Assembly: GCF_050920415.1 (NCBI RefSeq)
Contig: NZ_CP169309.1
Strand: one strand, 5' to 3'
DNA length: 64,000 nucleotides
From: Escherichia coli
GTDB lineage: Bacteria; Pseudomonadota; Gammaproteobacteria; Enterobacterales; Enterobacteriaceae
The position numbers and the translations under genes are program-made. Positions 1,291 through 64,000 of this stretch are shown here, one piece after another. A model generated the notes under the pieces. That model saw nothing but the letters and a program-made list of their open reading frames with translations. It was not told where the DNA came from and ran no database searches. How positions within the stretch are numbered: the stretch's first letter is position 1; every line of letters begins with the position of its first letter.

Positions 1291-2574
1291 ATGACAGAAG
1301 CGATGAAGATTACCCTCTCGACCCAACCTGCCGACGCGCGCTGGGGAGAAAAAGCGACTTACAGCATTAATAATGATGGTATTACCCTGCATTTGAACGG
1401 GGCAGACGATCTGGGGCTGATCCAGCGTGCGGCGCGCAAGATTGACGGTCTGGGCATCAAGCATGTTCAGCTAAGCGGTGATGGCTGGGATGCGGATCGT
1501 TGCTGGGCATTCTGGCAAGGTTACAAAGCCCCGAAAGGCACGCGTAAAGTGGAGTGGCCGGATCTGAACGATGCCCAGCGTCAGGAATTGGATAACCGCC
1601 TGATGATCATCGACTGGGTGCGTGACACCATCAACGCACCGGCAGAAGAACTGGGGCCATCGCAACTGGCACAGCGTGCTGTTGATCTGATCAGCAACGT
1701 CGCAGGCGATCGTGTGACTTACCGGATCACCAAAGGTGAAGATCTTCGTGATCAAGGTTATATGGGGCTGCACACTGTCGGGCGTGGTTCAGAACGTTCC
1801 CCGGTATTGCTGGCGCTGGATTATAACCCAACTGGCGATAAAGAAGCGCCGGTGTACGCGTGCCTGGTAGGTAAAGGCATCACCTTTGATTCCGGCGGCT
1901 ACAGCATCAAACAGACCGCGTTTATGGACTCAATGAAGTCTGACATGGGCGGTGCGGCAACGGTTACCGGGGCGCTGGCATTTGCCATTACGCGCGGTCT
2001 GAACAAGCGCGTGAAGCTGTTCCTCTGCTGTGCGGATAACCTGATTAGCGGCAACGCGTTCAAACTGGGGGATATCATTACCTATCGCAACGGTAAAAAA
2101 GTCGAAGTCATGAACACCGATGCGGAAGGGCGTCTGGTTCTGGCAGATGGACTGATTGACGCCAGTGCGCAGAAACCGGAACTGATTATCGATGCCGCGA
2201 CACTCACCGGTGCGGCGAAAACCGCGCTGGGTAATGATTATCACGCGCTGTTCAGTTTTGACGATGCGCTGGCCGGTCGCCTACTGGAGAGTGCCGCCCA
2301 GGAGAACGAACCGTTCTGGCGTCTGCCGCTGGCGGAGTTCCACCGTAGCCAGCTGCCATCTAACTTTGCGGAACTGAACAATACCGGAAGTGCGGCGTAT
2401 CCGGCGGGTGCAAGTACGGCGGCGGGCTTCCTGTCGCACTTTGTTGAGAACTATAAACAAGGTTGGCTGCATATCGACTGTTCGGCGACTTACCGTAAAG
2501 CACCAGTTGAACAGTGGTCTGCGGGTGCGACCGGGCTGGGTGTGCGCACGATTGCTAATCTGTTAACGGCGTAA
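1291..2574 (+). CDS. pepB: Peptidase B (M17 leucyl aminopeptidase family)
   Basis: ORF 1204-2574; likely ATG at 1291 (MTEAMKITL...) gives 427 aa; M17 motifs NTDAEGRL and catalytic domain. Confidence 0.9.
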
Positions 2575-2716: not shown

Positions 2717-3493
2717 ATGTCCGAAACAAAAAACGAACTTGAAGACCTGCTGGAAAAAGCAGCAACTGAACCGGCGCACCGTCCGGCCTTTTTCCGTACT
2801 CTACTGGGATCCACCGTCTGGGTGCCTGGTACGGCGGCGCAGGGCGAGGCTGTGGTTGAAGATAGCGCGCTTGATTTACAGCACTGGGAAAAAGAAGACG
2901 GCACCAGCGTCATTCCTTTTTTCACCTCGTTAGAAGCACTTCAACAGGCGGTTGAAGACGAACAGGCATTTGTCGTAATGCCCGTTCGCACATTGTTTGA
3001 GATGACCCTTGGCGAAACGCTCTTCCTTAATGCCAAACTGCCAACCGGTAAAGAATTTATGCCGCGTGAAATCAGTTTGCTGATTGGTGAAGAAGGGAAT
3101 CCGCTGAGCAGTCAGGAAGTACTGGAAGGCGGTGAATCGCTGATATTATCGGAGGTTGCAGAGCCGCCAGCGCAAATGATTGATTCACTTACCACCTTAT
3201 TTAAAACCATTAAGCCGGTGAAGCGTGCTTTTATTTGTTCAATTAAAGAGAACGAAGAGGCACAGCCTAATTTACTTATTGGCATTGAAGCCGATGGTGA
3301 TATCGAAGAAATTATTCAGGCGGCGGGAAGTGTAGCGACCGATACATTACCTGGCGATGAACCCATCGATATTTGTCAGGTGAAAAAAGGGGAAAAAGGA
3401 ATTAGCCACTTTATTACCGAACATATTGCGCCATTCTATGAACGTCGCTGGGGGGGATTCCTGCGTGATTTTAAACAGAATCGAATAATTTAA
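2717..3493 (+). CDS. sseB: Enhanced serine sensitivity protein SseB
   Basis: ORF 2708-3493; ATG at 2717 gives 258 aa; conserved neighbour of pepB and sseA. Confidence 0.85.
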   Translation: MSETKNELEDLLEKAATEPAHRPAFFRTLLGSTVWVPGTAAQGEAVVEDSALDLQHWEKEDGTSVIPFFTSLEALQQAVEDEQAFVVMPVRTLFEMTLGETLFLNAKLPTGKEFMPREISLLIGEEGNPLSSQEVLEGGESLILSEVAEPPAQMIDSLTTLFKTIKPVKRAFICSIKENEEAQPNLLIGIEADGDIEEIIQAAGSVATDTLPGDEPIDICQVKKGEKGISHFITEHIAPFYERRWGGFLRDFKQNRII

Positions 3494-3494
3494 A

Positions 3495-3948
3495 ATATGC
3501 CGCCCCAAAGGGCGGCATTCGGGCTTACTTGCTGTTCTGAAGGTTGTTAACCATCAGTAAATTGTTGCCGGAGGGACTCCGGTTATTATTTACCTCGGTT
3601 AACAGCGCACCAGAAACAATAAGTACGATACAGAAGTACCGTATCTTCATTGTGCGGTCCATGCGAAGACCGCATCACGACAGCACCACTGGCGATATTG
3701 CCGCGATAGCAAGCGCTGTGGGGTGCCTGCATTTACGGTCATGGAACATCCTTTCCTAAAGCCAGCGCCCGTTTGCGAGACGGCGAAAAGGGCCGTCACG
3801 AATAATACCCTCATATTTGAATAATTACTCTATTTATTATCTTGACTTAGCCAGGCATAAAAGAGAGTATTTCAACACTGTGGGGTGCCTGCGTTGCTCC
3901 GGCAACACAAGTCAACCTGCTGGAAAGGCCGCGAACCAGACCAGCAAT
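3495..3948. ncRNA. ryfA: Intergenic region expected to carry the RyfA small RNA (boundaries and strand not resolved)
   Basis: Recollection that ryfA lies between sseB and sseA in E. coli K-12; region has hairpins (3499-3516, 3651-3675), a 15-nt direct repeat ctgtggggtgcctgc at 3715 and 3878, and is flanked by a bidirectional terminator. Confidence 0.3.
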
Positions 3949-3976
3949 AAAAAACCGCCAAATTCGGCGGTTTTTT
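3949..3976. terminator. Bidirectional rho-independent terminator (aaaaaaccgccaaattcggcggtttttt)
   Basis: GC stem with A-tract upstream and T-tract downstream, just past the sseA stop. Confidence 0.65.
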
Positions 3977-3992
3977 ATTGCCTGTAAAAAGC

Positions 3993-4838
3993 TTATTTCT
4001 CTGGCTCAACCGGTAAATCGGCCCGTGCGCCCCATTCACTCCATGCGCCGTCGTACAGTTTCACGTTTGGCACATCCAGCGTCGCGAGTGCTAACAAAAC
4101 CACGGCTGCCGTTACACCAGAACCGCAACTGACGATAATTGGTTTGTCGTAGCTGACACCGCGACCAAAAAATATCGCATCCAGTTCATCGGTCGTTTTT
4201 AGTTCGCCTTCACGTACCAGTTCTGTCCACGGAACGTTCAACGCGCCGGGAATGTGCCCGCGACGTAAACCTGGGCGAGGTTCATCAACTTCTGCATTAA
4301 AACGTGCAGCCGGGCGGGCATCAATAATTTGCGCCGTATTTTCATGGCTTGCCAATAACACATCGGTTACTTTCACCACAGCCTCAGGATTAAACGCAGC
4401 GTTAAACTCACCTTCTCGCAGCGCTACTGCACCTTCTTCTAATAACAGATCATCACGCTGCCAACCTGCAAGTCCACCACCCAGAATCGACACTTTCTCT
4501 ACACCAAAGGTGCGCAGCATCCACCATGCGCGTGGGGCTGAGAAAAGATTACCTTCGTCATAGACAATCAGGTGCTTATCCTGGTTAACGCCTAACTCAC
4601 GCATTGCAACGGCGAACGTTTCCGGGCGCGGCAGCATGTGCGGAAGCGGGGAATTGTGATCAGAAAGCGCTTCGATATCGAAAAACACTGCGCCGGGAAT
4701 ATGTCCATTCAGATACTCCTGGGCAACGTTACGATCTTCCTGTCCAGGCGGTGCCATGCGGGCATCGATAATCTGAATTTCCGGGTCATCAATATGTTCG
4801 GCGAGCCAGTCGGCTCCTACAAACCATGTCGTGGACAT
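3993..4838 (-). CDS. sseA: 3-mercaptopyruvate sulfurtransferase (tandem rhodanese domains)
   Basis: ORF 3993-4850; start at MSTTWFVGADWL (4838) gives 281 aa; active-site CGSGVTA motif. Confidence 0.9.
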   Translation of the reverse strand: MSTTWFVGADWLAEHIDDPEIQIIDARMAPPGQEDRNVAQEYLNGHIPGAVFFDIEALSDHNSPLPHMLPRPETFAVAMRELGVNQDKHLIVYDEGNLFSAPRAWWMLRTFGVEKVSILGGGLAGWQRDDLLLEEGAVALREGEFNAAFNPEAVVKVTDVLLASHENTAQIIDARPAARFNAEVDEPRPGLRRGHIPGALNVPWTELVREGELKTTDELDAIFFGRGVSYDKPIIVSCGSGVTAAVVLLALATLDVPNVKLYDGAWSEWGARADLPVEPEK

Positions 4839-5043
4839 AGGCATCTCCATTTTTGCCGGGTTAGGCTAAATTGTCGGATGTTTAGTGAAAAGCGACAAGC
4901 AAAAGAGGCTAATTTGGCTGTCTGAGCCACAATTCTCACTAAAATTCGGATTCCATGGGCACGATACTGAATTACATAACGTAAATTCTCACGCATAATA
5001 ATTATTCGACGTTGCTAACGGGCCATTGTGGCAGGGATGAAAA

Positions 5044-34817: not shown

Positions 34818-34948
34818 TTATTCAGTCGATAGTAACCCGCCCTCCGGGGATAGCAAGCATTTTTTGCAAAAAGGGGTAGATGCAATCGGTTACGCTCTGT
34901 ATAATGCCGCGGCAATATTTATTAACCACTCTGGTCGAGATATTGCCC

Positions 34949-36415
34949 ATGCTACGTATCGCTAAAGAAGCTCTGACGTTTGACGACGTTCTCCTCGTTC
35001 CTGCACATTCTACCGTTCTGCCGAATACCGCTGACCTCAGCACCCAGCTGACGAAAACTATTCGTCTGAATATCCCTATGCTCTCCGCAGCAATGGATAC
35101 CGTAACGGAAGCGCGCCTGGCTATCGCCCTGGCTCAGGAAGGCGGTATAGGCTTTATCCACAAAAACATGTCTATCGAGCGCCAGGCTGAAGAAGTTCGC
35201 CGTGTGAAAAAACACGAATCTGGCGTGGTAACCGATCCGCAGACCGTACTGCCAACCACGACGCTGCGCGAAGTGAAAGAGCTGACCGAGCGTAACGGTT
35301 TTGCAGGCTATCCGGTTGTGACCGAAGAAAACGAACTGGTCGGCATCATCACCGGTCGTGACGTGCGTTTTGTTACCGACCTGAACCAGCCGGTCAGCGT
35401 TTACATGACGCCGAAAGAGCGTCTGGTAACCGTGCGTGAAGGCGAAGCCCGTGAAGTTGTGCTGGCAAAAATGCACGAAAAACGCGTTGAAAAAGCGCTG
35501 GTGGTTGATGATGAATTCCACCTGATCGGCATGATCACTGTGAAGGACTTCCAGAAAGCGGAGCGTAAACCGAACGCCTGTAAAGACGAACAAGGCCGTC
35601 TGCGTGTAGGTGCAGCGGTTGGTGCAGGTGCGGGTAACGAAGAGCGTGTTGATGCGCTGGTTGCCGCAGGCGTTGACGTTCTGCTGATCGACTCCTCTCA
35701 CGGTCACTCTGAAGGTGTTCTGCAGCGTATCCGTGAAACTCGCGCTAAATATCCTGACCTGCAAATCATCGGCGGCAACGTGGCAACAGCAGCAGGTGCC
35801 CGCGCGCTGGCAGAAGCCGGTTGCAGTGCCGTTAAAGTGGGTATCGGCCCAGGTTCTATTTGTACTACCCGCATTGTTACTGGCGTCGGTGTACCGCAGA
35901 TCACTGCCGTTGCTGACGCAGTAGAAGCCCTGGAAGGCACCGGGATTCCGGTTATCGCTGACGGTGGTATTCGTTTCTCTGGCGATATCGCGAAAGCTAT
36001 CGCTGCTGGTGCAAGCGCGGTGATGGTAGGCTCCATGCTGGCAGGTACGGAAGAATCCCCAGGTGAAATCGAACTCTACCAGGGCCGTTCTTACAAGTCT
36101 TACCGTGGGATGGGCTCTCTGGGCGCGATGTCCAAAGGTTCTTCTGACCGTTACTTCCAGAGCGACAACGCTGCCGACAAACTGGTGCCGGAAGGTATCG
36201 AAGGTCGCGTAGCCTATAAAGGTCGCCTGAAAGAGATCATTCACCAGCAGATGGGCGGCCTGCGCTCCTGTATGGGCCTGACCGGCTGTGGTACTATCGA
36301 CGAACTGCGTACTAAAGCGGAGTTTGTACGTATCAGCGGTGCGGGCATTCAGGAAAGCCACGTTCACGACGTGACCATTACTAAAGAGTCCCCGAACTAC
36401 CGTCTGGGCTCCTGA
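34949..36415 (+). CDS. guaB: IMP dehydrogenase
   Basis: ORF 34880-36415; ATG at 34949 ([21 protein letters not shown]) gives 488 aa; CBS domains and catalytic [11 protein letters not shown] loop. Confidence 0.95.
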
Positions 36416-36483
36416 TTCTCTTCGCCCGACTTCATGTCGGGCGATTTATATTATCTGTTTCACTTGCCTCGGAATAAGCGTCA

Positions 36484-38061
36484 ATGACGGAAAACATTCA
36501 TAAGCATCGCATCCTCATTCTGGACTTCGGTTCTCAGTACACCCAACTGGTTGCGCGCCGCGTGCGTGAACTGGGTGTTTACTGCGAACTGTGGGCGTGG
36601 GATGTGACAGAAGCACAAATTCGTGACTTCAATCCAAGCGGCATTATTCTTTCCGGCGGCCCGGAAAGCACCACCGAAGAAAACAGCCCGCGTGCGCCAC
36701 AGTATGTCTTTGAAGCAGGCGTACCGGTATTCGGCGTTTGCTATGGTATGCAGACCATGGCAATGCAGTTGGGCGGTCATGTTGAAGCCTCTAACGAACG
36801 TGAATTTGGCTATGCGCAGGTTGAAGTCGTAAACGACAGCGCACTGGTTCGCGGTATCGAAGATGCGCTGACCGCAGACGGTAAACCACTTCTCGATGTC
36901 TGGATGAGCCACGGCGATAAAGTTACCGCTATCCCGTCCGACTTCATCACCGTAGCCAGCACCGAAAGCTGCCCGTTCGCCATCATGGCTAACGAAGAAA
37001 AACGCTTCTACGGCGTACAGTTCCACCCGGAAGTAACTCACACTCGCCAGGGTATGCGCATGCTGGAGCGTTTTGTGCGTGATATCTGCCAGTGTGAAGC
37101 CCTGTGGACGCCAGCGAAAATTATCGACGATGCCGTAGCCCGTATCCGCGAGCAGGTAGGCGACGATAAAGTGATCCTCGGCCTCTCTGGTGGCGTGGAT
37201 TCCTCCGTAACCGCAATGCTGCTGCACCGCGCAATCGGCAAAAACCTGACTTGCGTATTCGTCGACAACGGCCTGCTGCGTCTTAACGAAGCAGAGCAGG
37301 TTCTGGATATGTTTGGCGATCACTTCGGTCTGAACATTGTTCACGTTCCGGCAGAAGATCGCTTCTTGTCAGCGCTGGCTGGCGAAAACGATCCTGAAGC
37401 AAAACGTAAAATCATCGGTCGCGTTTTCGTCGAAGTATTCGATGAAGAAGCGCTGAAACTGGAAGATGTGAAGTGGCTGGCGCAGGGTACTATCTACCCT
37501 GATGTTATCGAATCTGCCGCGTCTGCAACCGGTAAAGCACACGTCATCAAATCTCACCACAACGTGGGCGGCCTGCCGAAAGAGATGAAGATGGGCCTGG
37601 TTGAACCGCTGAAAGAGCTGTTCAAAGACGAAGTGCGTAAGATTGGTCTGGAGCTGGGCCTGCCGTACGACATGCTCTACCGTCACCCGTTCCCGGGACC
37701 AGGCCTCGGCGTTCGTGTTCTGGGTGAAGTGAAGAAAGAGTACTGTGATCTGCTGCGCCGTGCTGACGCCATCTTTATTGAAGAACTGCGTAAAGCGGAC
37801 CTGTACGACAAAGTCAGCCAGGCGTTCACCGTCTTCCTGCCAGTACGTTCCGTTGGTGTAATGGGCGATGGCCGTAAGTATGACTGGGTTGTCTCTCTGC
37901 GTGCTGTCGAAACTATCGACTTTATGACCGCACACTGGGCGCATCTGCCGTACGATTTCCTCGGTCGCGTTTCCAACCGCATTATCAATGAAGTGAACGG
38001 TATTTCCCGCGTGGTGTATGACATCAGCGGCAAGCCGCCGGCGACTATTGAGTGGGAATGA
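36484..38061 (+). CDS. guaA: GMP synthase (glutamine-hydrolysing)
   Basis: 525 aa; GATase domain (GVCYGMQ) and PP-loop SGGVDSS. Confidence 0.95.
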
Positions 38062-38109
38062 TTAACAGCTAACTCATAGCAAATCATTCCTATTCAGATG
38101 TCAACTCAA

Positions 38110-38140
38110 CCCTCTGTTTTTGCAGAGGGTTTTTGTTTTT
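38110..38140 (+). terminator. guaA rho-independent terminator (ccctctg-tttttg-cagaggg then T-run)
   Basis: Perfect 7-bp stem followed by tttttgttttt, about 50 bp after the guaA stop. Confidence 0.7.
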
Positions 38141-38196
38141 ATGTATTCATTTCTATTCACTCTACACCATATTTTTCGGCGGTACAGGTGACGGTA

Positions 38197-38211
38197 TTAC
38201 CTTAAAGGTAT
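38197..38211. promoter_or_regulatory. Palindromic operator-like site TTACCTTAAAGGTAT upstream of integrase
   Basis: Member of the TTACCT-N3-AGGTAA family, 1 mismatch. Confidence 0.45.
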
Positions 38212-38253
38212 ACTCTCATACCGTCATGAAAATGGTTTCTATACGGGTGAATT

Positions 38254-39504
38254 GTGCTTACCGATACAAAATTAAAAAACCTCAAGCCGCAGGACAAACT
38301 GTACAAGGTCTCCGATCGTGACGGGCTGTATGTAGCTGTGCTTACGTCAGGCACGGTCTCGTTTCGCTATGACTACCGTATCAACGGTCGCCGCGAAACA
38401 CTGGTAATCGGGCAGTATGGGCGTGACGGTATCAGCCTGGCAGAAGCGCGAGAAGAACTGATTGCTGCAAAGAAGCTGCTTAAAGCAGGCCAGTCGCCGG
38501 CTGCGGCTAAACGTGACGGTATCAAAAAGATTCGTGGTGCCGAGACGTTTGCGGTACATACCGACAGTTATATGAAACACGTCATCCTGGCTGACAGTAC
38601 CCGCGCAATGAAGCAGGCGGTGATCGACCGTGACATACTTCCGGTTCTTGGCAACAAAATGATGGCTGAAATTACCACATCGATGGTTCGTGATTTGTGT
38701 GACCGGATTGTCGAACGCGGTGGTCGGGCAACAGCAGTACAGGCCAGGGAGATCATCAGCAGCGTATACCGTCACGCCAATGACCGTGGTCATGGTTTGT
38801 TTAATCCTGCGGCTGACATTAAACCTTCGTCTATCGCCATATTTAAACCACGAGAGCGAACACTGACACCAGAAGAAATTGGCCTGTTCTTCCGCACGCT
38901 GGATGCCATTGGTGCTATGGGCACTATGAAAATGGCTTTAAAGCTGGTGCTTATCACTATGGTTCGTAAAGGCGAATTCACCAATGCAACGTGGGATGAA
39001 ATAGATTTTAAAAAATGGACATGGACAATTCCTTCAGACCGCATGAAGGGAAGCCGGGCGCACGTTATTTACCTGCCTAAACAGGCACAGGATATATTGG
39101 TTGGGTTGCAGATGTGCGCTGGTGGAAGTGAATATCTGGTTCCTGGTCGTTACAATTTCCGGAAGCCATTATCTAATGCCGCGCTGAACTCTCTGATCGA
39201 CAGAACGGTGAAAATAATAAATGAAGATGGTGAGCATATTCAGGGCTTCACCGTACACGATATGCGCCGTACAGCCAGTACGTTGTTGCATGAGGCTGGT
39301 TATCCTTCAGACTGGATTGAAAAGGCTCTGGCACATGAGCAGAAAGGTGTGCGCGCCGTATATAACAAAGCGGAATACGCCAGACAGCGCGCCTACATGT
39401 TGCAGCAGTGGGCCGATATGATTGATTCCTGGATTAACGGGGAGCATACGGATCTGATTCCGTTCTCCCCGTCGAAGTTTGAGAAGTGGATGGCGGGGGA
39501 ATAA
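38254..39504 (+). CDS. int: Tyrosine integrase (P4-type, N-terminal arm-binding domain)
   Basis: 416 aa, GTG start; N-terminal DUF4102-like region and C-terminal catalytic region (HDMRRTASTLL...ALAHE...Y). Confidence 0.85.
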   Translation: MLTDTKLKNLKPQDKLYKVSDRDGLYVAVLTSGTVSFRYDYRINGRRETLVIGQYGRDGISLAEAREELIAAKKLLKAGQSPAAAKRDGIKKIRGAETFAVHTDSYMKHVILADSTRAMKQAVIDRDILPVLGNKMMAEITTSMVRDLCDRIVERGGRATAVQAREIISSVYRHANDRGHGLFNPAADIKPSSIAIFKPRERTLTPEEIGLFFRTLDAIGAMGTMKMALKLVLITMVRKGEFTNATWDEIDFKKWTWTIPSDRMKGSRAHVIYLPKQAQDILVGLQMCAGGSEYLVPGRYNFRKPLSNAALNSLIDRTVKIINEDGEHIQGFTVHDMRRTASTLLHEAGYPSDWIEKALAHEQKGVRAVYNKAEYARQRAYMLQQWADMIDSWINGEHTDLIPFSPSKFEKWMAGE

Positions 39505-39507
39505 CGT

Positions 39508-39702
39508 TTAATAGTTCTGCTGATTTTCTTCCATCTCTGCTTCTGCTGCCAGTGATTCAATTTTGTTTTCGAATATTGCTGACAGTGTTGCAAATTCAGC
39601 ATCAGTGACGGCGGGAATTGGAACAAACCTGATCCCGCTGTGTGCAAGCATGTTTGCAGTTTCAAGGCATTTTCTTAAATCTGCTGGTGATGCCCTGTTC
39701 AT
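39508..39702 (-). CDS. Small hypothetical protein (64 aa), start overlaps the methyltransferase stop (ATGA)
   Basis: Sub-frame of ORF 39508-39822 beginning MNRASPADLRK; ATGA overlap with upstream gene suggests translational coupling. Confidence 0.3.
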   Translation of the reverse strand: MNRASPADLRKCLETANMLAHSGIRFVPIPAVTDAEFATLSAIFENKIESLAAEAEMEENQQNY

Positions 39703-40349
39703 GCAGCACGCTCCCGCCCCTGGTTGTCTGTTGGTGACAGCGGAGAATTGCTGAATGCATTTGTTAATCCGCCAATATCCAACGCGTATCCAGGGTGTAG
39801 TTGCACTGCCGGGTCTTCGCACTGATTACCCCAAACATCGAAGCCATGAGACGACTGGCGGGCGAATAGTTCAATGCGAGAAACATCGCCTAACAATTGC
39901 ACAAGTTTTTCACGAACGACATCTGGTTTTCTTGAGTGCTCAAGCCGCGGTGCGGTAAATGACTGAACGATCCCTGCATTAATGCGCGGAGGTAGTTTTC
40001 CCTTTACCGCAAACAGGCAATCTTCACTATTGGCGCGAGTCATGTGTCCCATACCCATAACAAGTTTATCTGGTTGTCGACTACCACATTTTATCCACGT
40101 GAAGCCCTTCATCGTCATCAGACGGAATCCCCAGGCTTCAACAACTTTTAGTGCTTCGAGTGGTTGTGTTGGCACCCACCACATGGCCAACAGACAGTTT
40201 TCATCGGCCAAATCCCACACAGGAAGGCGGCAGATATCCAGCACACTCATAACCGGATATTTAAAACCGGCACCGCGATTACCATCTGCGGCTTTGTCCC
40301 GGTATACCCAGGGTGGATCTGCATAGATTAGTGTGTATTTCTTAGTCAT
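39699..40349 (-). CDS. MT-A70 family DNA N6-adenine methyltransferase (orphan, no cognate nuclease seen)
   Basis: ORF 39699-40361; ATG at 40349 (MTKKYTLIYADPPW); DPPW catalytic motif. Confidence 0.7.
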   Translation of the reverse strand: MTKKYTLIYADPPWVYRDKAADGNRGAGFKYPVMSVLDICRLPVWDLADENCLLAMWWVPTQPLEALKVVEAWGFRLMTMKGFTWIKCGSRQPDKLVMGMGHMTRANSEDCLFAVKGKLPPRINAGIVQSFTAPRLEHSRKPDVVREKLVQLLGDVSRIELFARQSSHGFDVWGNQCEDPAVQLHPGYALDIGGLTNAFSNSPLSPTDNQGRERAA

Positions 40350-40641
40350 AAACCACCCCACAACATCCTATGCCGCTATAGTCGCCACGGCGAAGGCCGT
40401 TACCTTTTGTGATACATTGGTCCCTGCGAACCGCGATCCTTGCACGTTCAACATCACCAGAAGCAACATCCATACACTGAAGCCAAAGGTGGGCGGCAAT
40501 GCGGAACTGCCCTTTTTTCTCTCTTTCAATCGCGCGTTTTTCGATCTCTATCGCCGCAGGAGTAACGGCGACAATCTTTGACGGACTGCGCATTGAAACC
40601 TTGTTCATGTGATATTTTTCAAGTCGGCTTAACTTTCTCAC
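40342..40641 (-). CDS. PerC-family transcriptional regulator-like protein
   Basis: 99 aa; pattern ...IEREKKGQFRIAAHLWLQCMD...ERARIAVRRDQC resembles the PerC/Pch signature as I recall it. Confidence 0.45.
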   Translation of the reverse strand: MRKLSRLEKYHMNKVSMRSPSKIVAVTPAAIEIEKRAIEREKKGQFRIAAHLWLQCMDVASGDVERARIAVRRDQCITKGNGLRRGDYSGIGCCGVVYD

Positions 40642-40750
40642 TTAATCCAACCCTCTCTGAAAATTAATGCCAGCAGATAAAGCCATGCTGAAACAGAGGC
40701 CAGGAATAAGTACCATCCTGACCATTTGCTCCAGTGCCTTAGCAGCGCAC

Positions 40751-40999
40751 TCATGCAGCGTTGCTCACGGGACGATATACACGTTGCTGAACAGGAGGTT
40801 TTTTACCCTGGAACTCTGCCGGGCTTGCTGCCTGACGTTCATCAAGCCAACGCTCAACTTCGTCACGGTTCCATGCGCAGCGTTTGTCAGTGATATACCA
40901 GCGTTTAGGAAATTCCCCTGCGCGCTCCATACGGTCGATAGTGCTCCATGACAGTGGCACCACCGCCAGGAGTTCCTTCTTACCTAATGCACCTTTCAT
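40751..40999 (-). CDS. AlpA-family phage transcriptional regulator / excisionase-like HTH protein
   Basis: 82 aa; HTH with ...LSWSTIDRMERAGEFPKR...WNRDEVERWL typical of AlpA/Xis. Confidence 0.7.
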   Translation of the reverse strand: MKGALGKKELLAVVPLSWSTIDRMERAGEFPKRWYITDKRCAWNRDEVERWLDERQAASPAEFQGKKPPVQQRVYRPVSNAA

Positions 41000-41048
41000 A
41001 AATACCTCTCTTGGTTGCAGTGCGGCGCGTGTGGCGCCGCGGTGGTGG

Positions 41049-41930
41049 TTACATAGATGTTTCGTTTAATTCTTCCCGACGAACGCTGTAAACGTCGGTG
41101 GCTTTTGCCAGCAGTTCGTCATCATCTGAAAGTTTTTGTGCAATGTATTTGTAAGCCTTATCCAGTTCGGAGACAGTGCTGTAATTCATCGCTGCGCTGG
41201 TAAAGGCCATCAGCATTTCTTCTGGATCACGGCTATCCGCTTTACGAGTTTGCTCATCAGGCTTTTTCACTGGTTTAGCGTTGATCAGACTGTTCATTCC
41301 CGCAGCAGTAGTTGTTTGCGGAGTAATGTCTCGCTCAACGCGCGGTGCCGTTTCCTGTAATTCGTCAGGGGTGTAAACACCGAGAAGCACATCAGGAGCG
41401 TGCAGGCGAGCCCATCGTTTCGTGCAAAGATAGGCAAGCTGCTGGCGCGGATCCTGTTCCCACAATGGAGAGTTACGCACTCCGGCTTGCGCCATACTGA
41501 TGGTAAGCTCACGGGGTTCTGCTTCTCCTTTAAGAACTGCTGACACAGTTACCGTCAGATTCGGTGATTTATCTGTTTTGCCGTTAACATTCGACCAGTC
41601 ACCGCTCCAGCGATAATTCAGGCGTGTCGCTAGCAGGCTGGAAGAGGATACGACCGCGTTTACCAACTGTGCTTCGTAGCCTAACGTTCCGTTTACCACA
41701 TGCGTTTTCTGCGCCACGGCGAAAGGGTTCATTCCCCACTGTGCCGCCTGCATGGTCACCGCCAGACAATCGGCAGTTTTGCCTTCAAGATGTTTCGGTA
41801 CAGTCGCTTTGCTTTGTGACATCAACTCCGCGAAACGCACCAGTTGATTCATGCCCTCCGGGCTGAAGATTGCCGCAGCAGTACCTACAGTTGCGCCTGG
41901 TTGTGATGTGATTGCGATATCATTGCTCAT
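41049..41930 (-). CDS. RecT-family single-strand annealing recombinase
   Basis: 293 aa; RecT-like core; directly downstream of and overlapping a PD-(D/E)XK exonuclease gene. Confidence 0.75.
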   Translation of the reverse strand: MSNDIAITSQPGATVGTAAAIFSPEGMNQLVRFAELMSQSKATVPKHLEGKTADCLAVTMQAAQWGMNPFAVAQKTHVVNGTLGYEAQLVNAVVSSSSLLATRLNYRWSGDWSNVNGKTDKSPNLTVTVSAVLKGEAEPRELTISMAQAGVRNSPLWEQDPRQQLAYLCTKRWARLHAPDVLLGVYTPDELQETAPRVERDITPQTTTAAGMNSLINAKPVKKPDEQTRKADSRDPEEMLMAFTSAAMNYSTVSELDKAYKYIAQKLSDDDELLAKATDVYSVRREELNETSM

Positions 41931-42748
41931 ACGTACATATCCTGTTTACGTGCCCAGTCAGGGCGTTTAATAATTTCCACGCCGCCCCATTCATCATTGA
42001 TGCGGCATTCGTGATAGGTATTCAGATCCCGGCGGAACAGAGCGTGCCCGGCATCGACATCCGGCGCATCCAGCTCGAACACGCGTACCGGATACCGACC
42101 ACAATCAATGCTTTCGCTCACGGCAAGAAAGAAAAAACCATGCGACTGACCAGTAACCCTCATTGCGCCTTCGCGGTACATTGCGTCCTGCACGTGGTAG
42201 CGGAATTCCTCGATGTGGCGTGCAAAACGATCCATATCTGCAACCTTTTTCACGTCGACGATCACGTTGTGCTCGTTCAGCCATTTGTCTGGACGAATGC
42301 GGCACAACTCACCAGTCTCTTCATCATTCCAGTACATTGATGCTTCGCAGTAACCAGGTGCTTCCAGCATCCAGCGTGCCGCCGGGTGAGCCATTGCGCT
42401 ATCACGCATCAGCTCCAGTTTCCGCCACTGCTCGGCATCAAGTACCGTAATCCCCATATCCGCTACATCACGAAGAAATGCTTCTTCGTCAGCTTTACCT
42501 TGTTTCGTCCGACGATCGAACTTCGGTGAAACAATGAAGCGTTTGTCGAATTCTCCAGGCTCCAGAAGCAGAGAGTGCAATGCGGTTCCCATATCCAGTG
42601 CAGACTTTTTCTCTTCGTCTTCTGGTGCTGCCTGAACCCATTTAAGAAGCGCCGGATTCTTGGCAACCATGTCCAGTTGCGACTTACTCACGCCGTCACC
42701 GGCGTGGTAGTCTTCGTTGCTGATGTCGAAATAAATTCCCGGTTTCAT
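41927..42748 (-). CDS. PD-(D/E)XK-type exonuclease (RecE/YqaJ-like partner of RecT)
   Basis: 273 aa; motifs D..EYH, IVDVKK consistent with PD-(D/E)XK nuclease fold; 4-bp overlap with recT. Confidence 0.65.
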   Translation of the reverse strand: MKPGIYFDISNEDYHAGDGVSKSQLDMVAKNPALLKWVQAAPEDEEKKSALDMGTALHSLLLEPGEFDKRFIVSPKFDRRTKQGKADEEAFLRDVADMGITVLDAEQWRKLELMRDSAMAHPAARWMLEAPGYCEASMYWNDEETGELCRIRPDKWLNEHNVIVDVKKVADMDRFARHIEEFRYHVQDAMYREGAMRVTGQSHGFFFLAVSESIDCGRYPVRVFELDAPDVDAGHALFRRDLNTYHECRINDEWGGVEIIKRPDWARKQDMYV

Positions 42749-43050
42749 GCCGCTTCCCTCTGCCCATCAATCCGATCCGCCAGATCCCAGCGGGCGATAA
42801 TTGCCATTGCCTCGCGACGGTAGGCATCCATAAGTTCTTCGAACTCAGGGCTGTCTTTAGCTGCCTCCAGCACTTCCTGGCGAACGCCTTTGCCTGTTAC
42901 ACCGTCAAAAGTTGAGGCCAGTTGATGAAGCCGGATGCTATCAATCAGTTCAACTTGTCGGTCATATAGCTGTTCTGACAGGCGGTAGTCCTTGTCGAAT
43001 GCCAGCATGATTTTTTGAAGATTTTTCTGCTGATTAACGTTCATACCCAC
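42745..43050 (-). CDS. Hypothetical phage protein (101 aa)
   Basis: ORF with overlapping stop/start junctions inside the leftward early operon. Confidence 0.5.
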   Translation of the reverse strand: MGMNVNQQKNLQKIMLAFDKDYRLSEQLYDRQVELIDSIRLHQLASTFDGVTGKGVRQEVLEAAKDSPEFEELMDAYRREAMAIIARWDLADRIDGQREAA

Positions 43051-43051
43051 C

Positions 43052-44086
43052 TCAATATTTGATATACGCGTCCTGCACTTTGCCGCCAGCGATAGCCAAC
43101 ATTGCTTTCTGCGCGAATTCTTCGGGAATGCCTTGGGCTATCAGATCTGCGATTACTCTGCTGTTAACGGTACGGCGATGCTCTTTATCTGCAGCTCGGC
43201 GCGATTCTTCGTCGGCGATACGCTTCTGTTCGTCAAGGCGGGCTTTTTCTGCCGCCTCTTGGCGTCGGCGTTCCTCGGCAACGGCTTCTTCTTTTTCGCG
43301 TCGTGCACGCTGCTCTGCTTCAATTCGCTGACGTTCTGCTACTTCAGCACGTGCTTTTTCTTCCGCCGCCAGGCGTTCCGCAGCCTCAATTTCAGCTTTC
43401 GCTTTTTGTTCAGCTTCGAGCCTGGCCTGTTCAGCAGCTTCCCGGCGGATATTCTCTTCTCGCTCAATGCGCGCTTTTTCCTCCGCTTCTTTGCGAAGTC
43501 GCTCCAGCTCAGCGGCTTCATGCTCGCGTTTTTGAGCTACTGCGAGTGATTCTTCCAGTTTCTGGATGGTTGAATCCTTGGCTACTCCAGCTTCTGCTGC
43601 GTACTCCTGCCAACTTTCATCAAGTGCTACTGATTTAGCCTCTTGAATTCGTTCCTGAATATCAGATGATGGCAAGTAGTTTCCGGAGAGATCGATCACG
43701 TCAGCTAGTGCTCGCAAATTTGTCAGGCGTTGTTGCAGTGCTTCAGTGCGTAATTTCTCCGCATTTTCCCACTCGGTGAGTGGGCGGCGTACTTCATCAC
43801 GAAGCCGATCGCATTCGGTTACGAAGCGTCGTAACTCTGCTTCAACTACTTTCGGCTGTTCTTTCAGGCGTTTCAGATAATCACGTCCTGGTTTTTCTAC
43901 CGCTGTTTTACTTCTTGAAACCTTCGCAGCCAGAGATGCAATGCGCTTTCTGCCTTTGTCTGTGCTAATGTCAGGCACTTCATTAACACCTTCACGGATC
44001 TGCTCGAGAAACTTTTCCAGCCCTTTTTCAACGTAAATTCTTGGTGCCATGTCTGGTGTGATTTCGATGATTGATAATTCACTCAT
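43052..44086 (-). CDS. Hypothetical coiled-coil protein with E/R/A-rich low-complexity repeat region
   Basis: 344 aa; residues ~190-300 are almost pure E/A/R/K heptad-like repeats. Confidence 0.55.
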   Translation of the reverse strand: MSELSIIEITPDMAPRIYVEKGLEKFLEQIREGVNEVPDISTDKGRKRIASLAAKVSRSKTAVEKPGRDYLKRLKEQPKVVEAELRRFVTECDRLRDEVRRPLTEWENAEKLRTEALQQRLTNLRALADVIDLSGNYLPSSDIQERIQEAKSVALDESWQEYAAEAGVAKDSTIQKLEESLAVAQKREHEAAELERLRKEAEEKARIEREENIRREAAEQARLEAEQKAKAEIEAAERLAAEEKARAEVAERQRIEAEQRARREKEEAVAEERRRQEAAEKARLDEQKRIADEESRRAADKEHRRTVNSRVIADLIAQGIPEEFAQKAMLAIAGGKVQDAYIKY

Positions 44087-44244
44087 TTGCTAACCTCCTC
44101 CCATATCTCGTTATCGTTGGCCACATCGCGAGCTTCTTTGCTGACGAAAGCCCACTTAATGCCTTCCTGTAAGGTGCGGAACTTCCAGCTCATGAATCCG
44201 CATGCAGTAACGCAGTACCAACCGTTGATGATTTTCCACTGCAT
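44083..44244 (-). CDS. Small hypothetical protein (53 aa), first gene of leftward early operon
   Basis: Not in ORF track (below 60 aa); MQWKIINGWYCVTACGFMSWKFRTLQEGIKWAFVSKEARDVANDNEIWEEVSK; stop overlaps next start. Confidence 0.3.
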   Translation of the reverse strand: MQWKIINGWYCVTACGFMSWKFRTLQEGIKWAFVSKEARDVANDNEIWEEVSK

Positions 44245-44325
44245 AACTTGTTACCTCGGTCTGTTACCGTTGAGGTAATAATTATGCGTATCTGGTTTGA
44301 TGTCAATAGATATGAGTTAAAAAAA

Positions 44326-44340
44326 TTACCCGTTAGGTAA
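44326..44340. promoter_or_regulatory. Palindromic operator-like site TTACCCGTTAGGTAA at the leftward early promoter
   Basis: TTACCT-N3-AGGTAA family, 1 mismatch; lies between the repressor terminator and the first leftward early gene. Confidence 0.45.
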
Positions 44341-44350
44341 TCGAATAGGC

Positions 44351-44377
44351 AATAAAAAAGCCGCCATAAGGCGGCTT
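44351..44377 (-). terminator. Rho-independent terminator of the repressor gene (hairpin aagccgcc-ataa-ggcggctt, T-run on minus strand)
   Basis: Read directly; U-tract present only in the minus-strand orientation. Confidence 0.6.
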
Positions 44378-44397
44378 ACTTACTGAAAAATATGATT

Positions 44398-44982
44398 TTA
44401 TTGTTTGTTTTTTTCGTTCTGGTTGATGACAAATTCAATGTAACTTTCGATCTTTGCCTTCTCTGTTTCAGGTAACAATGCGTAGCGCGAGCGGTCATAG
44501 TTGATAGTTGCAGGGTCATGCGGATGAATCAGTAGTTCATATCCGTGACGCCCGAATGCAGATGCAACATTCTCCAGGGTGGAAATGGAAACGCTGACCT
44601 CATTGTTTAACAGGCGGCTGATTGTCACCTGGGCGACGCCGGATGCGCGGTGAAGTTTTCCCTGTGTTGAAAGGTCGCGGCTTTCGCTCATCCAGCGTTC
44701 CAGGTTGTGAGCCGCCAGCTGACCAATGTCGCTTGGGCCGACAGGCTGAAAACCTTCCTGAGAAAGCGAGCGATCGATATCAAGCCAGTTACGGGGTTTA
44801 TTGGCGGCAGCTTCAATTTTTCGCGCAACCTGGTCGCCGATAACCTTCTTGCCAAGAGCCCAGCGGTTTACCAGATTTGCCTGAGTTCCAAGTTTTTCTG
44901 CCATCCGCGTCTGAACACCATTGAATTCACGGTCGATCAAGTCGTTGAGATTTTGCCTGCGGACGTCCTGGATACTTTTCAT
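44398..44982 (-). CDS. Phage CI-like repressor (HTH, Phage_CI_repr-type)
   Basis: 194 aa; N-terminal HTH (QTRMAEKLGTQANLVNRWALGKK) and second HTH-like segment; divergent from a Cro-like gene across an operator-rich spacer. Confidence 0.55.
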   Translation of the reverse strand: MKSIQDVRRQNLNDLIDREFNGVQTRMAEKLGTQANLVNRWALGKKVIGDQVARKIEAAANKPRNWLDIDRSLSQEGFQPVGPSDIGQLAAHNLERWMSESRDLSTQGKLHRASGVAQVTISRLLNNEVSVSISTLENVASAFGRHGYELLIHPHDPATINYDRSRYALLPETEKAKIESYIEFVINQNEKNKQ

Positions 44983-45037
44983 TTTCTGGAAAATCGCCTC
45001 ATATATGAATCAGTAGATGATTCAATTTAAAGCAATA

Positions 45038-45100
45038 TTACCCAACAGGTAAATGCACCTCATAGGTAACTATCCTTGATTTTTGTTACCTTATGGGTGA
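45038..45100. promoter_or_regulatory. Divergent switch region with three operator-like palindromes (45038-45052, 45055-45069, 45086-45100)
   Basis: TTACCCAACAGGTAA, GCACCTCATAGGTAA, TTACCTTATGGGTGA; arrangement reminiscent of OR1-OR3 between cI and cro. Confidence 0.5.
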
Positions 45101-45136
45101 ATATTTATTATCTGAAATAAATATCAGGCAATAGCT

Positions 45137-45367
45137 ATGAGCGATAACGGACATTTCGATTTCAAAAAGCACTGGCTTGCACTTACTCCGGATGAGCGTG
45201 AAGCCTTCGCACAGGAAGCCGGAACGACGAGTCACTATATCCAGACTCACTTAACAGGTAAGCGAAAAATGCCAGGTAAAGTATTGATGAATGGGCTTTT
45301 TAAAGCCTGTAAAACAAGACAATGGCTGCGCTCAAAAGCAGAACTGGCATACTTCTTCTACTCATGA
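45137..45367 (+). CDS. Cro-like / YdaS-type HTH regulator
   Basis: 76 aa; HTH segment FAQEAGTTSHYIQTHLTGKRKMPGKVL; divergent from the CI-like gene. Confidence 0.5.
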   Translation: MSDNGHFDFKKHWLALTPDEREAFAQEAGTTSHYIQTHLTGKRKMPGKVLMNGLFKACKTRQWLRSKAELAYFFYS

Positions 45368-45388
45368 TATCCAGCTACAACCCTCTGT

Positions 45389-45412
45389 AGACCGCCATCC
45401 GGCGGTCTTTTC
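45389..45412 (+). terminator. Hairpin agaccgcc-atcc-ggcggtct followed by tttt
   Basis: Read directly after the cro-like gene stop. Confidence 0.5.
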
Positions 45413-45422
45413 ATATCTATTC

Positions 45423-45437
45423 GTACCTTAAAGGTAA
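45423..45437. promoter_or_regulatory. Palindromic operator-like site GTACCTTAAAGGTAA
   Basis: TTACCT-N3-AGGTAA family, 1 mismatch; upstream of the 45518 gene. Confidence 0.4.
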
Positions 45438-45517
45438 TAAAAAACCAAATCTGGTTGATCTTTTTTTTGTGTCAGCACAAAATAACCGTAATCCCAATAC
45501 TAATAACAGGGCTTACC

Positions 45518-45718
45518 ATGGAAATCATTACACGTATTGATGCCGCAAAGCGCGGACTTAAACGCTACTACACCGGAAAACCATGTAAGCACGGACATGA
45601 CAGTGAACGCTGGGTTTACAACGGACACTGTGTTGAGTGCACCATGGAATCAAACCGTCGCATTAGGGCAGAGATTAAGCAGATCATGATTAATTCCTCC
45701 CCACAACATTCAAGCTGA
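45518..45718 (+). CDS. Small putative zinc-binding phage protein (66 aa)
   Basis: ATG at 45518 within ORF 45455-45718; CKHGH...CVEC motif. Confidence 0.4.
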   Translation: MEIITRIDAAKRGLKRYYTGKPCKHGHDSERWVYNGHCVECTMESNRRIRAEIKQIMINSSPQHSS

Positions 45719-45733
45719 TAGCGGAGATTAATC

Positions 45734-46549
45734 ATGAGCAGACATGCAACAGATTGGGCCTGGGAGACAGATCCAGGCAGCTCATCATTAAAGCTCATAC
45801 TGCTCTCGATGGCTGACAGAGCCGATGAATATAACCTCTGCTACCCCAGCATAGAACGCCTCGTTAAAGACACTTGCCTGAATAAAAAAACCGTGCAGGC
45901 CGGGCTTATATCGCTCATGAAAATGGGGCTTATTTCAGATACCGGAGAGAGAAAGGGAGCGACGAAAAGAGTGCGGGTTTTCTCTCTTAATATAACCAAA
46001 AACGGGAACATTAAAGGCAACCGGGAAGGGAGTAATGAACCCGAAAACGGAAATGTTACCGAAAACGGGAATATACCCAAAAACGGGATGTTGAATGATC
46101 CCAAAAACGGGATGTTGAATGATCCCAAAAACGGGATCCAGAACCAGTCATATAACCAGTCATTTAACCAAGAGAGGGGGAGCAGGACAAAAACCGGGGA
46201 TTCTGTGCCTCATGACCCCGGCGCAAACAACGCCGTGATGAATAACTTTGTTCCTCCTGGTGGGCCAGGGCAATTAGGCAAATTTGTCATGCATGAACAA
46301 TGGCAACCATCAGATGACTTTCTTCGGAAAAGCTCATTGCAGGGAATCTACCTGGACAGTCTGCCAACGGCACAGGAACTTGCAGAGTTCAGAATTTACT
46401 GGATGGCTGAGGGTAAGGCATACCATCAGGCACAGTGGGAGCAGAAGCTGGCAAGGCGGCTGCAGATTAGCAGACAGAAGCAATCAACATTACCTGATAA
46501 CAACGTTCCGCACTGGAACAGCCCTGAAGCGTGGGAGGATTTCTTGTGA
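45734..46549 (+). CDS. Replication initiator, lambda O-like (N-terminal winged-helix domain, internal repeat linker, DnaT-like C-terminus)
   Basis: 271 aa; immediately upstream of and overlapping a clear lambda P homolog; coding sequence contains iteron-like repeats. Confidence 0.65.
   Translation: MSRHATDWAWETDPGSSSLKLILLSMADRADEYNLCYPSIERLVKDTCLNKKTVQAGLISLMKMGLISDTGERKGATKRVRVFSLNITKNGNIKGNREGSNEPENGNVTENGNIPKNGMLNDPKNGMLNDPKNGIQNQSYNQSFNQERGSRTKTGDSVPHDPGANNAVMNNFVPPGGPGQLGKFVMHEQWQPSDDFLRKSSLQGIYLDSLPTAQELAEFRIYWMAEGKAYHQAQWEQKLARRLQISRQKQSTLPDNNVPHWNSPEAWEDFL
45998..46136. repeat. Iteron-like array: six copies of (c/g)aaaacggga including a perfect 24-bp tandem duplication (46078-46101 = 46102-46125); candidate origin inside the O-like gene
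   Basis: Copies at 45998, 46043, 46061, 46078, 46102, 46126, followed by aaccagtcat x2 at 46142-46165. Confidence 0.55.
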
Positions 46550-62911: not shown

Positions 62912-64000
62912 TGCCAGTCGTACCAACAGTATCCGGACGTCAGGTTGAGAGCCGTGGAGTTCAGTCAGCAGGCTTGCAGACGTTTTCTCAGCCAGGTATT
63001 GGTGATGCTTTTGTTCGGGCAGGGGCAGAGACAATTGATGTTTTTGGTCAGGCAAAACAGCGTGCCAATATCGCTCTGGCTCAGGAGGCATCCCTTAAAC
63101 TCAGTCAGACAGGCAGCGATCTGCTGAATAACCCTGAAACAGGTTTGCTTAACCTGAAAGGGAAAAATGCTATTGGAAAAGGTCAGGAGTATACGCAGCA
63201 GTTTGATGCTCAGATCGAACAACTGGCTATGTCGCTGCCGGATGAACAGGCTCGTAATGCTTTCATGCAGCAGGCGCAGCAGCAGCGTATTCAGTTCACT
63301 ACGCAGGCCGGGCGGCACGAGATAGGGCAAATAAATGCCTACGAAGAAGGTCAGTTTCAGGCGACGCTGCTGAACAATGGTAAAAATGCCGCAGCATTGT
63401 ATGGCGACAATGCCGCATACGTATTGGCTAATAAGCAAACTTTCCAGCAAATTGAGGAGTACGGTGCTGCACATGGCTGGAGCGACGAGCAAATACAGGC
63501 CAAGAAAATCGAGTTTAAAGAGAAGGTTGCTGATGCAGCATTGTCCCAGTGGTCGGCAAACAATGCGATCTCATTTATCCAAAGTAATGGCGAGTTAAGC
63601 GATACTGCTGCTGGAGCTCGCCGTGCTGTAGCAGATAGTGACTCTTCCGAGCGTGCCCGTGGCATACGCAACAATAACCCAGGAAATCTCGAATACAGCA
63701 AAACTAATCCGTGGGTAGGCCAGACCGGTGATGATGGTCGATTTGCTAAATTCGAAACACCTGAACACGGGATTCGTGCATTAGGGCGGAACCTGATGTC
63801 GTATCAGAGGCAGGGTATTGATACCGTCAGCGAGATAATTAATCGCTGGGCACCGCCTACTGATAAAAATGACACTATGTCGTATATCAAAGCAGTGTGC
63901 GAACAACTTGGCGTTTCTGCTGATGAGCCTCTCGATGCATCTAATCCTGATACCCTGAAGGCGCTTTGTGCAGCCATTATCCATCATGAGAACGGTAGCC
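62911..64000 (+). CDS. Large virion-associated protein, N-terminal 363 aa only (continues beyond window); contains GIRNNNPGNLEY motif
   Basis: Frame-1 reading frame open from ATG 62911 (taATG overlap) to window end with no stop; not in ORF track because it is unterminated. Confidence 0.5.
   Translation, partial: MPVVPTVSGRQVESRGVQSAGLQTFSQPGIGDAFVRAGAETIDVFGQAKQRANIALAQEASLKLSQTGSDLLNNPETGLLNLKGKNAIGKGQEYTQQFDAQIEQLAMSLPDEQARNAFMQQAQQQRIQFTTQAGRHEIGQINAYEEGQFQATLLNNGKNAAALYGDNAAYVLANKQTFQQIEEYGAAHGWSDEQIQAKKIEFKEKVADAALSQWSANNAISFIQSNGELSDTAAGARRAVADSDSSERARGIRNNNPGNLEYSKTNPWVGQTGDDGRFAKFETPEHGIRALGRNLMSYQRQGIDTVSEIINRWAPPTDKNDTMSYIKAVCEQLGVSADEPLDASNPDTLKALCAAIIHHENGS

Follow-up and report, generated by a model that had tools for sequence, protein, structure and literature searches.

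Gene content of the region

The window, i.e. the whole analysed stretch of 64,000 nt of Escherichia coli DNA (contig NZ_CP169309.1), contains the genes guaB and guaA (34880-38061 in its list of ORFs), directly followed by a prophage. From position 38047 to position 64000 the sequence is collinear with the genome of Escherichia phage phiV10 (genus Uetakevirus; NC_007804). Comparison by blastn placed the beginning of the phiV10 homology 15 nt within the 3' end of guaA and revealed 98.6% identity over 2989 bp in the segment 38062-41050. The left end of the prophage includes a terminator-like hairpin (38108-38131), and a terminator is annotated at the matching position in phiV10.

The features of the region are collected in Table 1. 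The order of the genes is exo, recT, the AlpA-type gene, the 38-aa ORF, the PerC-like gene, the methyltransferase gene and the DUF1382 gene, after which the convergent int gene follows. Their phiV10 equivalents are PhiV10p31-p36, annotated as integrase (p31), DUF1382 family protein (p32), DNA methyltransferase (p33), PerC-family activator (p34), membrane peptide (p35) and AlpA-family regulator (p36), with p37 annotated as RecE/RecT. Both prophages have the same gene order, the same overlaps and the same position beside the convergent P4-type integrase, and within the equivalents of p32-p34 they differ only by point differences. Elsewhere the window prophage departs from phiV10, since it carries a 344-aa ORF replacing p39 and a partly different late-early region. 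The region is best explained as the terminal part of an early-left operon, running from recombination to integration functions, that belongs to a phiV10-like prophage (Uetakevirus) located beside guaA.

Table 1. Features of the prophage region (positions are those of the window)
Feature	Position	Strand	Evidence
Prophage left end (attL side)	38047..38131	+	blastn against phiV10; terminator scan; phiV10 annotation
P4-type tyrosine integrase (= PhiV10p31), convergent with the early-left operon	38254..39504	+	phrog_1 (E=4e-87); phiV10 annotation
64-aa DUF1382 / lambda Orf63 homologue (= PhiV10p32)	39508..39702	-	PF07131; phrog_292; PDB 8DSB
Putative coupling junction	39699..39715	-	GGGAG at 39715-39711, 8-nt spacer, ATGA overlap at 39702-39699; direct sequence reading
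216-aa solitary MT-A70 (beta-class) methyltransferase, predicted N6-adenine (= PhiV10p33)	39699..40349	-	PF05063; phrog_359; PADLOC MTase_II
PerC-family small regulator (= PhiV10p34)	40342..40641	-	phrog_868 (E=6e-62); RefSeq and phiV10 annotations; junction sequence
38-aa membrane peptide (= PhiV10p35)	40638..40754	-	phrog_17484; phiV10 annotation
AlpA-type excisionase/regulator (= PhiV10p36)	40751..40999	-	phrog_66; phiV10 annotation
RecT, recombination gene of the same early-left operon	41049-41930	-	ORF list; phiV10 annotation
YqaJ-type exonuclease, recombination gene of the same early-left operon	41927-42748	-	ORF list; phiV10 annotation
Candidate early-left promoter, TTGACA-17-AATTAT	44306-44278	-	Consensus scan only
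Putative repressor gene	44398-44982		phrog_8 and related families

The start codon of the PerC-like gene is either GTG at 40641 or ATG at 40608, and the NCBIfam search of its product gave only a sub-threshold ANR match. The candidate early-left promoter was the sole minus-strand promoter-like site in or directly upstream of the operon, as detected by a consensus scan that yielded fewer sites than shuffled sequence did. The putative repressor gene is followed by a terminator-like hairpin (44377-44358), and the candidate promoter lies just downstream of this hairpin. At the opposite end of the operon no terminator-like site was found after the DUF1382 gene, save for a weak minus-strand match (38488-38476) placed approximately 1 kb further on, inside int. 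The Rfam scan of positions 36000-46000, performed for both strands, yielded no matches.

The region is already known and ordinary, as it consists of annotated genes of a well-known and widespread prophage. The segment 39400-40700 was present in 544 of the 5426 complete E. coli genomes (~10%), in which RefSeq names the products MT-A70 family methyltransferase, PerC family transcriptional regulator and DUF1382 family protein. Little of what is described here is new: annotations of these genes already exist for phiV10 and for hundreds of E. coli genomes in RefSeq, and both protein families have been the subject of dedicated papers.

The methyltransferase gene

The methyltransferase ORF starts with the ATG at 40349, ends with the TGA at 39701-39699 and encodes a protein of 216 aa with the N-terminus MTKKYTLIYADPPW. 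Residues 5-176 of this protein matched the full length of the Pfam MT-A70 model (PF05063; E=8.5e-22, model positions 1-172 of 172), and the DPPW motif was found at residues 11-14. In an alignment of nine phage methyltransferase homologues D11, P12 and W14 were invariant, and the window protein retains the other family-invariant residues as well. Among solved structures, those of Tetrahymena MTA1 and human METTL3 are closest to it in sequence. The AlphaFold model, obtained from the nine phage homologues (pTM 0.66), has a core mostly of pLDDT 70-90 and a disordered tail with values below 50. In the fold search, this model matched METTL3 and MTA1 with E-values of about 1e-12 to 3e-12 and TM scores of 0.55-0.6. 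These results uphold the assignment to the DPPW-motif MT-A70 family made in the preliminary description: the gene encodes an MT-A70 N6-adenine methyltransferase, the methyl transfer itself being predicted from sequence and fold.

METTL3, an RNA enzyme, and MTA1, a DNA enzyme, scored alike in the fold search, which does not separate the two substrates. The phage protein has the catalytic fold and the DPPW motif in common with both of them, but the identity is only ~24%, and the eukaryotic enzymes work in multi-subunit complexes and possess extra domains, whereas the phage protein is a bare 216-aa catalytic domain. NCBIfam contained no model matching either the methyltransferase or the product of the small ORF downstream.

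The restriction partner was searched for in several ways. PADLOC matched the methyltransferase alone (MTase_II), with no other system component, and no endonuclease was found in the phiV10 annotation or among those window ORFs that differ from phiV10. The gene is neighboured by the PerC-like, DUF1382 and integrase genes, and not by an endonuclease gene as is typical of Type II restriction-modification systems. We therefore rejected membership in a restriction or defence system, and the label of an orphan methyltransferase, given to it earlier, is correct.

It might be supposed that such a gene no longer has a function and is an inactive or decaying remnant. Related prophage methyltransferases have been reported to be silent or weakly expressed in lysogens (PMC5778455, PMC10810198), and copies disrupted by insertion sequences occur in some Stx phages. 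The window gene, however, has a full-length reading frame with all family-invariant residues intact, and it is retained in phiV10, which is recorded as a complete phage genome. Moreover, the 77 near-identical prophage copies differed by 59 synonymous versus 31 non-synonymous variant codons. We consider decay of this gene highly improbable.

The small downstream gene

The small ORF (ATG at 39702-39700, TAA at 39510-39508) had been described as a 64-aa ORF, and its conservation in related prophages had been put forward as a check. This analysis identified it as a conserved member of a named family, DUF1382 / lambda Orf63, for which a solved structure exists (PDB 8DSB). Residues 1-60 of its product cover the whole Pfam model of DUF1382 (PF07131; E=2.1e-30, model positions 1-60 of 60), and comparison with lambda Orf63 (8DSB; PMC10869804) gave E=8.5e-13 with about 50% identity over 61 residues, the two proteins being of the same length. 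Among near-identical prophages the gene showed 16 synonymous and 11 non-synonymous variant codons. Judging from sequence, both this ORF and the methyltransferase ORF are real genes rather than chance ORFs.

Lambda Orf63 exists as an obligate intertwined dimer whose cleft accommodates an amphipathic helix, and it has no known partner; deletion of its gene delays and weakens prophage induction, i.e. the protein has a pro-lytic phenotype (PMC10869804, PMC5575149). For the window protein, homology predicts a homodimer of the same intertwined helix-strand-helix kind. The gene also fits the placement of lambda orf63, which lies in the early-left operon (exo-xis region), between the recombination genes and int. 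In lambda-type phages (BP-4795, 2851, 2G7b) the gene follows orf60a (DUF1317) and has no adjacent methyltransferase gene, whereas in the window prophage it closes the operon.

Gene junctions

The stop codon of the methyltransferase gene and the start codon of the DUF1382 gene share the sequence ATGA (39702-39699), as described previously. A Shine-Dalgarno-like motif, GGGAG (39715-39711), lies inside the methyltransferase gene, 8 nt before the ATG of the small ORF. At the other end of this ORF its stop codon and the convergent stop codon of the integrase gene (TAA, 39502-39504) are separated by 3 nt (39505-39507); the distance of 4 bp given in the preliminary description agrees with this when taken as a difference of coordinates. 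An additional overlap had been missed: the ATG of the methyltransferase gene overlaps the stop codon of the PerC-like gene by 8 nt (ATGACTAA, 40349-40342).

Analysis of the whole operon revealed overlaps at at least five of its eight gene junctions. Besides the 8-nt overlap, four junctions are exact 4-nt ATGA or GTGA overlaps, one of them only if the PerC-like gene starts with the GTG at 40641. The ATGA overlap is therefore a common feature of the operon rather than a peculiarity of the methyltransferase and the small ORF. In the minimum-energy fold of the junction RNA the ribosome-binding site of the small ORF is paired, with an energy no better than that of shuffled sequences (z=0.27). Since the small ORF has its own GGGAG at 8-nt spacing and the fold is of this quality, dependence of its translation on that of the upstream gene cannot be deduced from the junction. 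The previously proposed coupling of the two genes thus stands as far as the ATGA overlap with an internal ribosome-binding site is concerned, and translational coupling would be a possible consequence; the idea that it is specific to this pair does not stand, as the same junction precedes three alternative genes (see below).

An exchangeable gene behind a fixed junction

The content of the slot flanked by the stop codons of the methyltransferase and integrase genes was surveyed in viral contigs, using the best 80 of about 600 matches, in which the methyltransferase is 97-100% identical; deeper diversity of the methyltransferase was sampled from GenBank phages. Within these best 80 of about 600, the slot was occupied by a DUF1382 gene in 52 contigs, by a gene for a NinI-like Ser/Thr phosphatase in 23, and by an 82-aa gene together with a gene for an Ant-like anti-repressor in five. 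All three alternatives start, in these 80 contigs, at the same ATGA behind the same GGGAG. In phage Tyrion the methyltransferase tail and the junction are likewise kept, with an unrelated 68-aa gene next to them. The junction is a fixed expression signal ahead of an exchangeable cargo slot, and its occurrence before three alternative genes means that the pairing of the methyltransferase with DUF1382 is not obligate. This last slot of the operon provides an example of phages swapping accessory genes without disturbing the expression signals.

These data bear directly on the alternative that the methyltransferase and the Orf63-like protein are a functional pair, in which the small dimer would regulate the enzyme, assist it as a partner or act as its specificity factor, with the overlap keeping the synthesis of the two proteins in step. 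Enzymes of the MT-A70 type often depend on a partner subunit (PMC10810198), and the cleft of Orf63, a protein with no known partner, binds an amphipathic helix. In addition, both proteins have been reported to favour lytic growth or induction. In two unrelated lineages, the phiV10-like phages and the Stx phages (among them PA8 and PA28), the methyltransferase gene is immediately followed by a DUF1382 gene that overlaps it, and the searches with the two proteins returned the same phage records with adjacent coordinates. However, 28 of the best 80 contigs, all with a methyltransferase 97-100% identical to that of the window, hold the phosphatase or another gene and no DUF1382, and homologous methyltransferases occur without DUF1382 in seven other phage lineages. 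Conversely, DUF1382 is present without any MT-A70 gene in lambda, BP-4795, pEp_SNUABM_08, Solent and Cruim01, and no co-variation of the methyltransferase tail with the downstream gene was observed. A functional pair at this locus is therefore improbable, and we regard as very doubtful the broader proposal that Orf63-type (DUF1382) proteins are partners or regulators of phage MT-A70 methyltransferases.

The study of the Stx-phage enzyme looked at upstream genes only (PMC10810198). If the partner reading were true, it would connect two activities of Stx and related prophages, both pro-lytic and induction-promoting, that have been reported separately, Orf63 would gain its missing binding partner, and bacterial MT-A70 enzymes would gain an accessory subunit resembling those of the eukaryotic MT-A70 complexes.

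Relatives of the methyltransferase in Stx phages

The tblastn search of GenBank phages detected the methyltransferase gene in 517 records. More than 110 of the records are Stx2a phages, with about 83% identity over residues 1-187. The proteins of phages PA8 and PA28 are mutually identical, and they share 155 of 187 residues (83%) with the window methyltransferase. The similarity to the PA8/PA28 enzyme ends at residue 187; the C-terminal tail of the window protein (residues 188-216, ~29 residues) is unrelated, and the C-terminal ~27 residues of the STEC type are absent from it. The specificity determinants of beta-class enzymes usually reside in the central loop. In the alignment of nine homologues this loop (residues ~86-100, KCGSRQPDKLVMGMG) belongs to the Stx type and not to the Tyrion/epsilon15 type.

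The window prophage and the phages encoding the PA8/PA28 enzyme and M.EcoGV are thus alike in the 83% identical core, in the central loop, in the location of the gene within the early-left operon, close to its integrase end, and in the overlapping DUF1382 gene that comes next, although this overlap amounts to 41 nt in the Stx phages and to 4 nt in the window prophage. They are unlike in that the window prophage has no gene for PNB-2 or PNB-1, a PerC-like upstream gene and an unrelated tail. Homologues of PNB-2 and PNB-1 were not detected by tblastn anywhere in the whole window (best E-values of 8.4 and 0.59, respectively). The upstream PerC-like protein shows no sequence similarity to the product of the PA28 upstream gene; its consideration as an equivalent of PNB-2 was dropped for this reason.

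The enzyme of PA8 (gp5) has been described as M.EcoPA8orf6770P (PMC10810198). On its own it is nearly inactive on DNA or RNA, and the purified protein did not methylate DNA in vitro to a significant extent, either at GATC or elsewhere (PMC10810198). It co-purifies with PNB-2, the product of the upstream gene, and the complex prefers 16S rRNA, in which the modified base was never mapped (PMC10810198). The targeting of rRNA was credited to PNB-2, and the C-terminal tail was linked by the authors to the STEC isoform and to PNB-2 (PMC10810198). Presence of the gene raises spontaneous prophage induction and virulence (PMC10810198). For M.EcoGV, a relative from O104:H4, one source lists a GATC specificity as determined by PacBio (PMC6602927). 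Another describes it as highly similar to M.EcoPA8orf6770P and as methylating GATC in vivo when overexpressed, a result that, coming from plasmid overexpression, was considered possibly off-target by the authors (PMC10810198).

Probable substrate and role of the methyltransferase

The explanation that we favour overall, with a probability of roughly 0.55, is that the early-left operon encodes a solitary, Dam-like GATC DNA methyltransferase followed by an independent Orf63 cargo gene, with a junction through which ribosomes pass from one to the other. The methyltransferase would most likely be co-expressed with the recombination genes following induction or infection, a timing that we infer, and it would most likely methylate DNA adenine at Dam-like GATC sites, as reported for M.EcoGV. 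Such methylation could keep replicating phage DNA fully methylated, could guard it against GATC-targeting restriction in new hosts, and possibly affects induction. The DUF1382 protein would be a lambda Orf63-type dimeric modulator favouring lytic development, as an independent and exchangeable cargo. The ribosome-binding site in the 3' end of the methyltransferase gene together with the ATGA would allow ribosomes to pass straight to the last-slot gene before the integrase.

The specificity for DNA and GATC is inferred by analogy with M.EcoGV. It is favoured because homologues of PNB-2 and PNB-1 are missing, the PerC-like gene is unrelated to the upstream gene of PA28, the STEC tail is absent, and the central loop is of the Stx type. 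The anti-restriction or regulatory role suggested in the preliminary description is plausible.

An enzyme acting mainly on RNA has to be weighed against this, i.e. one that methylates 16S rRNA in the lysogen, like the holoenzyme of PA8 gp5 and PNB-2, and thereby tunes spontaneous prophage induction. The 83% identity of the core to M.EcoPA8orf6770P and the common central loop speak for it, as do the preference for rRNA and the effect on induction reported for that enzyme (PMC10810198) and the presence of METTL3 among the closest structures. Against this, the component credited with targeting has no counterpart in the window, the gene in the upstream position encodes an unrelated PerC-like protein, and an unrelated tail stands in place of the one linked to PNB-2 and the STEC isoform, while even for PA8 itself the modified rRNA base was never mapped. 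The consensus scan, moreover, detected no internal promoter upstream of the methyltransferase gene. Taken together, we judge an RNA substrate to be unlikely, though not negligibly so.

The question of wider interest here is which substrate, DNA or rRNA, is used by this clade of phage MT-A70 enzymes; it concerns a property of a family already under study and was not revealed by the window. With approximately one in ten complete E. coli genomes carrying such a gene without PNB-2, these prophages offer a natural test case for DNA (GATC) versus RNA methylation in the clade. The frequency of potential target sites was also considered as a clue to specificity. The observed/expected ratio of GATC was 0.73-0.78 in the phage and 0.76 in the host, so that the sequence is neither avoided nor enriched, and avoidance of GATC or of other 4-mer palindromes was rejected as a clue, the phage values being equal to those of the host.

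The gene may be silent in the lysogen, as the early-left operon lies downstream of the putative repressor gene. The comparison of methylomes of the lysogen and a cured strain, proposed earlier as a means of finding the modified motif, would probably be uninformative, because the likely motif, GATC, is already methylated by the host Dam and the gene is probably part of a repressed operon. It is worth adding that the PA8 gene was reported to be transcribed in lysogens from a stationary-phase promoter, and silence of the window methyltransferase in the lysogen is thus not assured.

T4 Dam, P1 Dmt and M.EcoVT2Dam of Stx phages, which we take to be solitary phage Dam-type GATC methyltransferases, resemble the window enzyme in being phage adenine methyltransferases without a restriction partner and, if M.EcoGV is a valid guide, also in their specificity for GATC. 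In sequence, these three presumably belong to families other than MT-A70.

The end of the early-left operon

The early-left operon ends in a cargo slot whose content is exchangeable (see the table below). In the best 80 of about 600 matching loci (viral contigs whose methyltransferases are 97-100% identical to that of the window prophage), a constant junction, composed of GGGAG plus the ATGA overlap, precedes three alternative contents: DUF1382 in 52 of the 80 loci, a 219-aa Ser/Thr phosphatase resembling NinI in 23, and, in the other 5, an 82-aa phrog_9805 gene together with an Ant-like anti-repressor gene. One DUF1382 copy carries a frameshift.

The operon and the integrase gene int are convergent, their stop codons being separated by 3 nt (window 39502-39510), and no terminator-like site was found between these stop codons. 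Given this arrangement, antisense read-through by early-left transcripts is expected across int, on the minus strand downstream of the stop codons (to ~38250).

Positions of the cargo slot and of genes adjacent to the methyltransferase or at the operon head
Feature	Location	Strand	Remarks
Cargo slot	L003-L082 (80 viral-contig loci), ~3620-4900		equivalent: window 39508-39715
344-aa Glu/Arg/Ala-rich protein	window 43052-44086	minus	phrog_1376
PNB-2, 143 aa	PA8 locus (L090) 1469-1900		upstream of methyltransferase
62-aa protein	PA28 locus (L002) 3316-3504		upstream of methyltransferase
355-aa protein	Salmonella phage SPC32N (L085) 1437-2504		annotated DNA-sulfur modification protein; weak ParB-like match

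The methyltransferase and its upstream neighbours

In the alignment of phage homologues (A2), the window methyltransferase proves to be a mosaic: the central loop KCGSRQPDKLVMGMG (residues ~86-100) matches the Stx-phage type, and the C-terminal tail and the junction are of the type seen in Enterobacter phage Tyrion.

The methyltransferases of the Stx phages PA8 and PA28 are identical, yet the genes upstream differ: apart from the ATGA junction, PNB-2 and the PA28 protein have in common only a C-terminal stretch of ~9 residues (YIDEFENAL). The published partner PNB-2 is thus absent from some Stx phages carrying the same enzyme. In SPN1S-type phages, the gene for the 355-aa protein shares 4 nt with the beginning of the homologous methyltransferase gene, and is another candidate partner in the upstream position.

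Comparison with phiV10

The gene at the operon head encodes a probable coiled-coil protein (phrog_1376), whereas phiV10 has the 50-aa p39 gene at this place. RecE-RecT of phiV10 is annotated as a single fusion gene, p37 (L001 5988-7748), but in the window prophage the exonuclease and RecT are separate ORFs with an ATGA overlap (41049-42748). DNA similarity to phiV10 is interrupted at 41475-41652.

On the guaA side, this similarity begins 15 nt ahead of the guaA stop codon and includes the hairpin terminator (window 38047-38131), so that, after integration, the guaA 3' end and its terminator are supplied by the phage.
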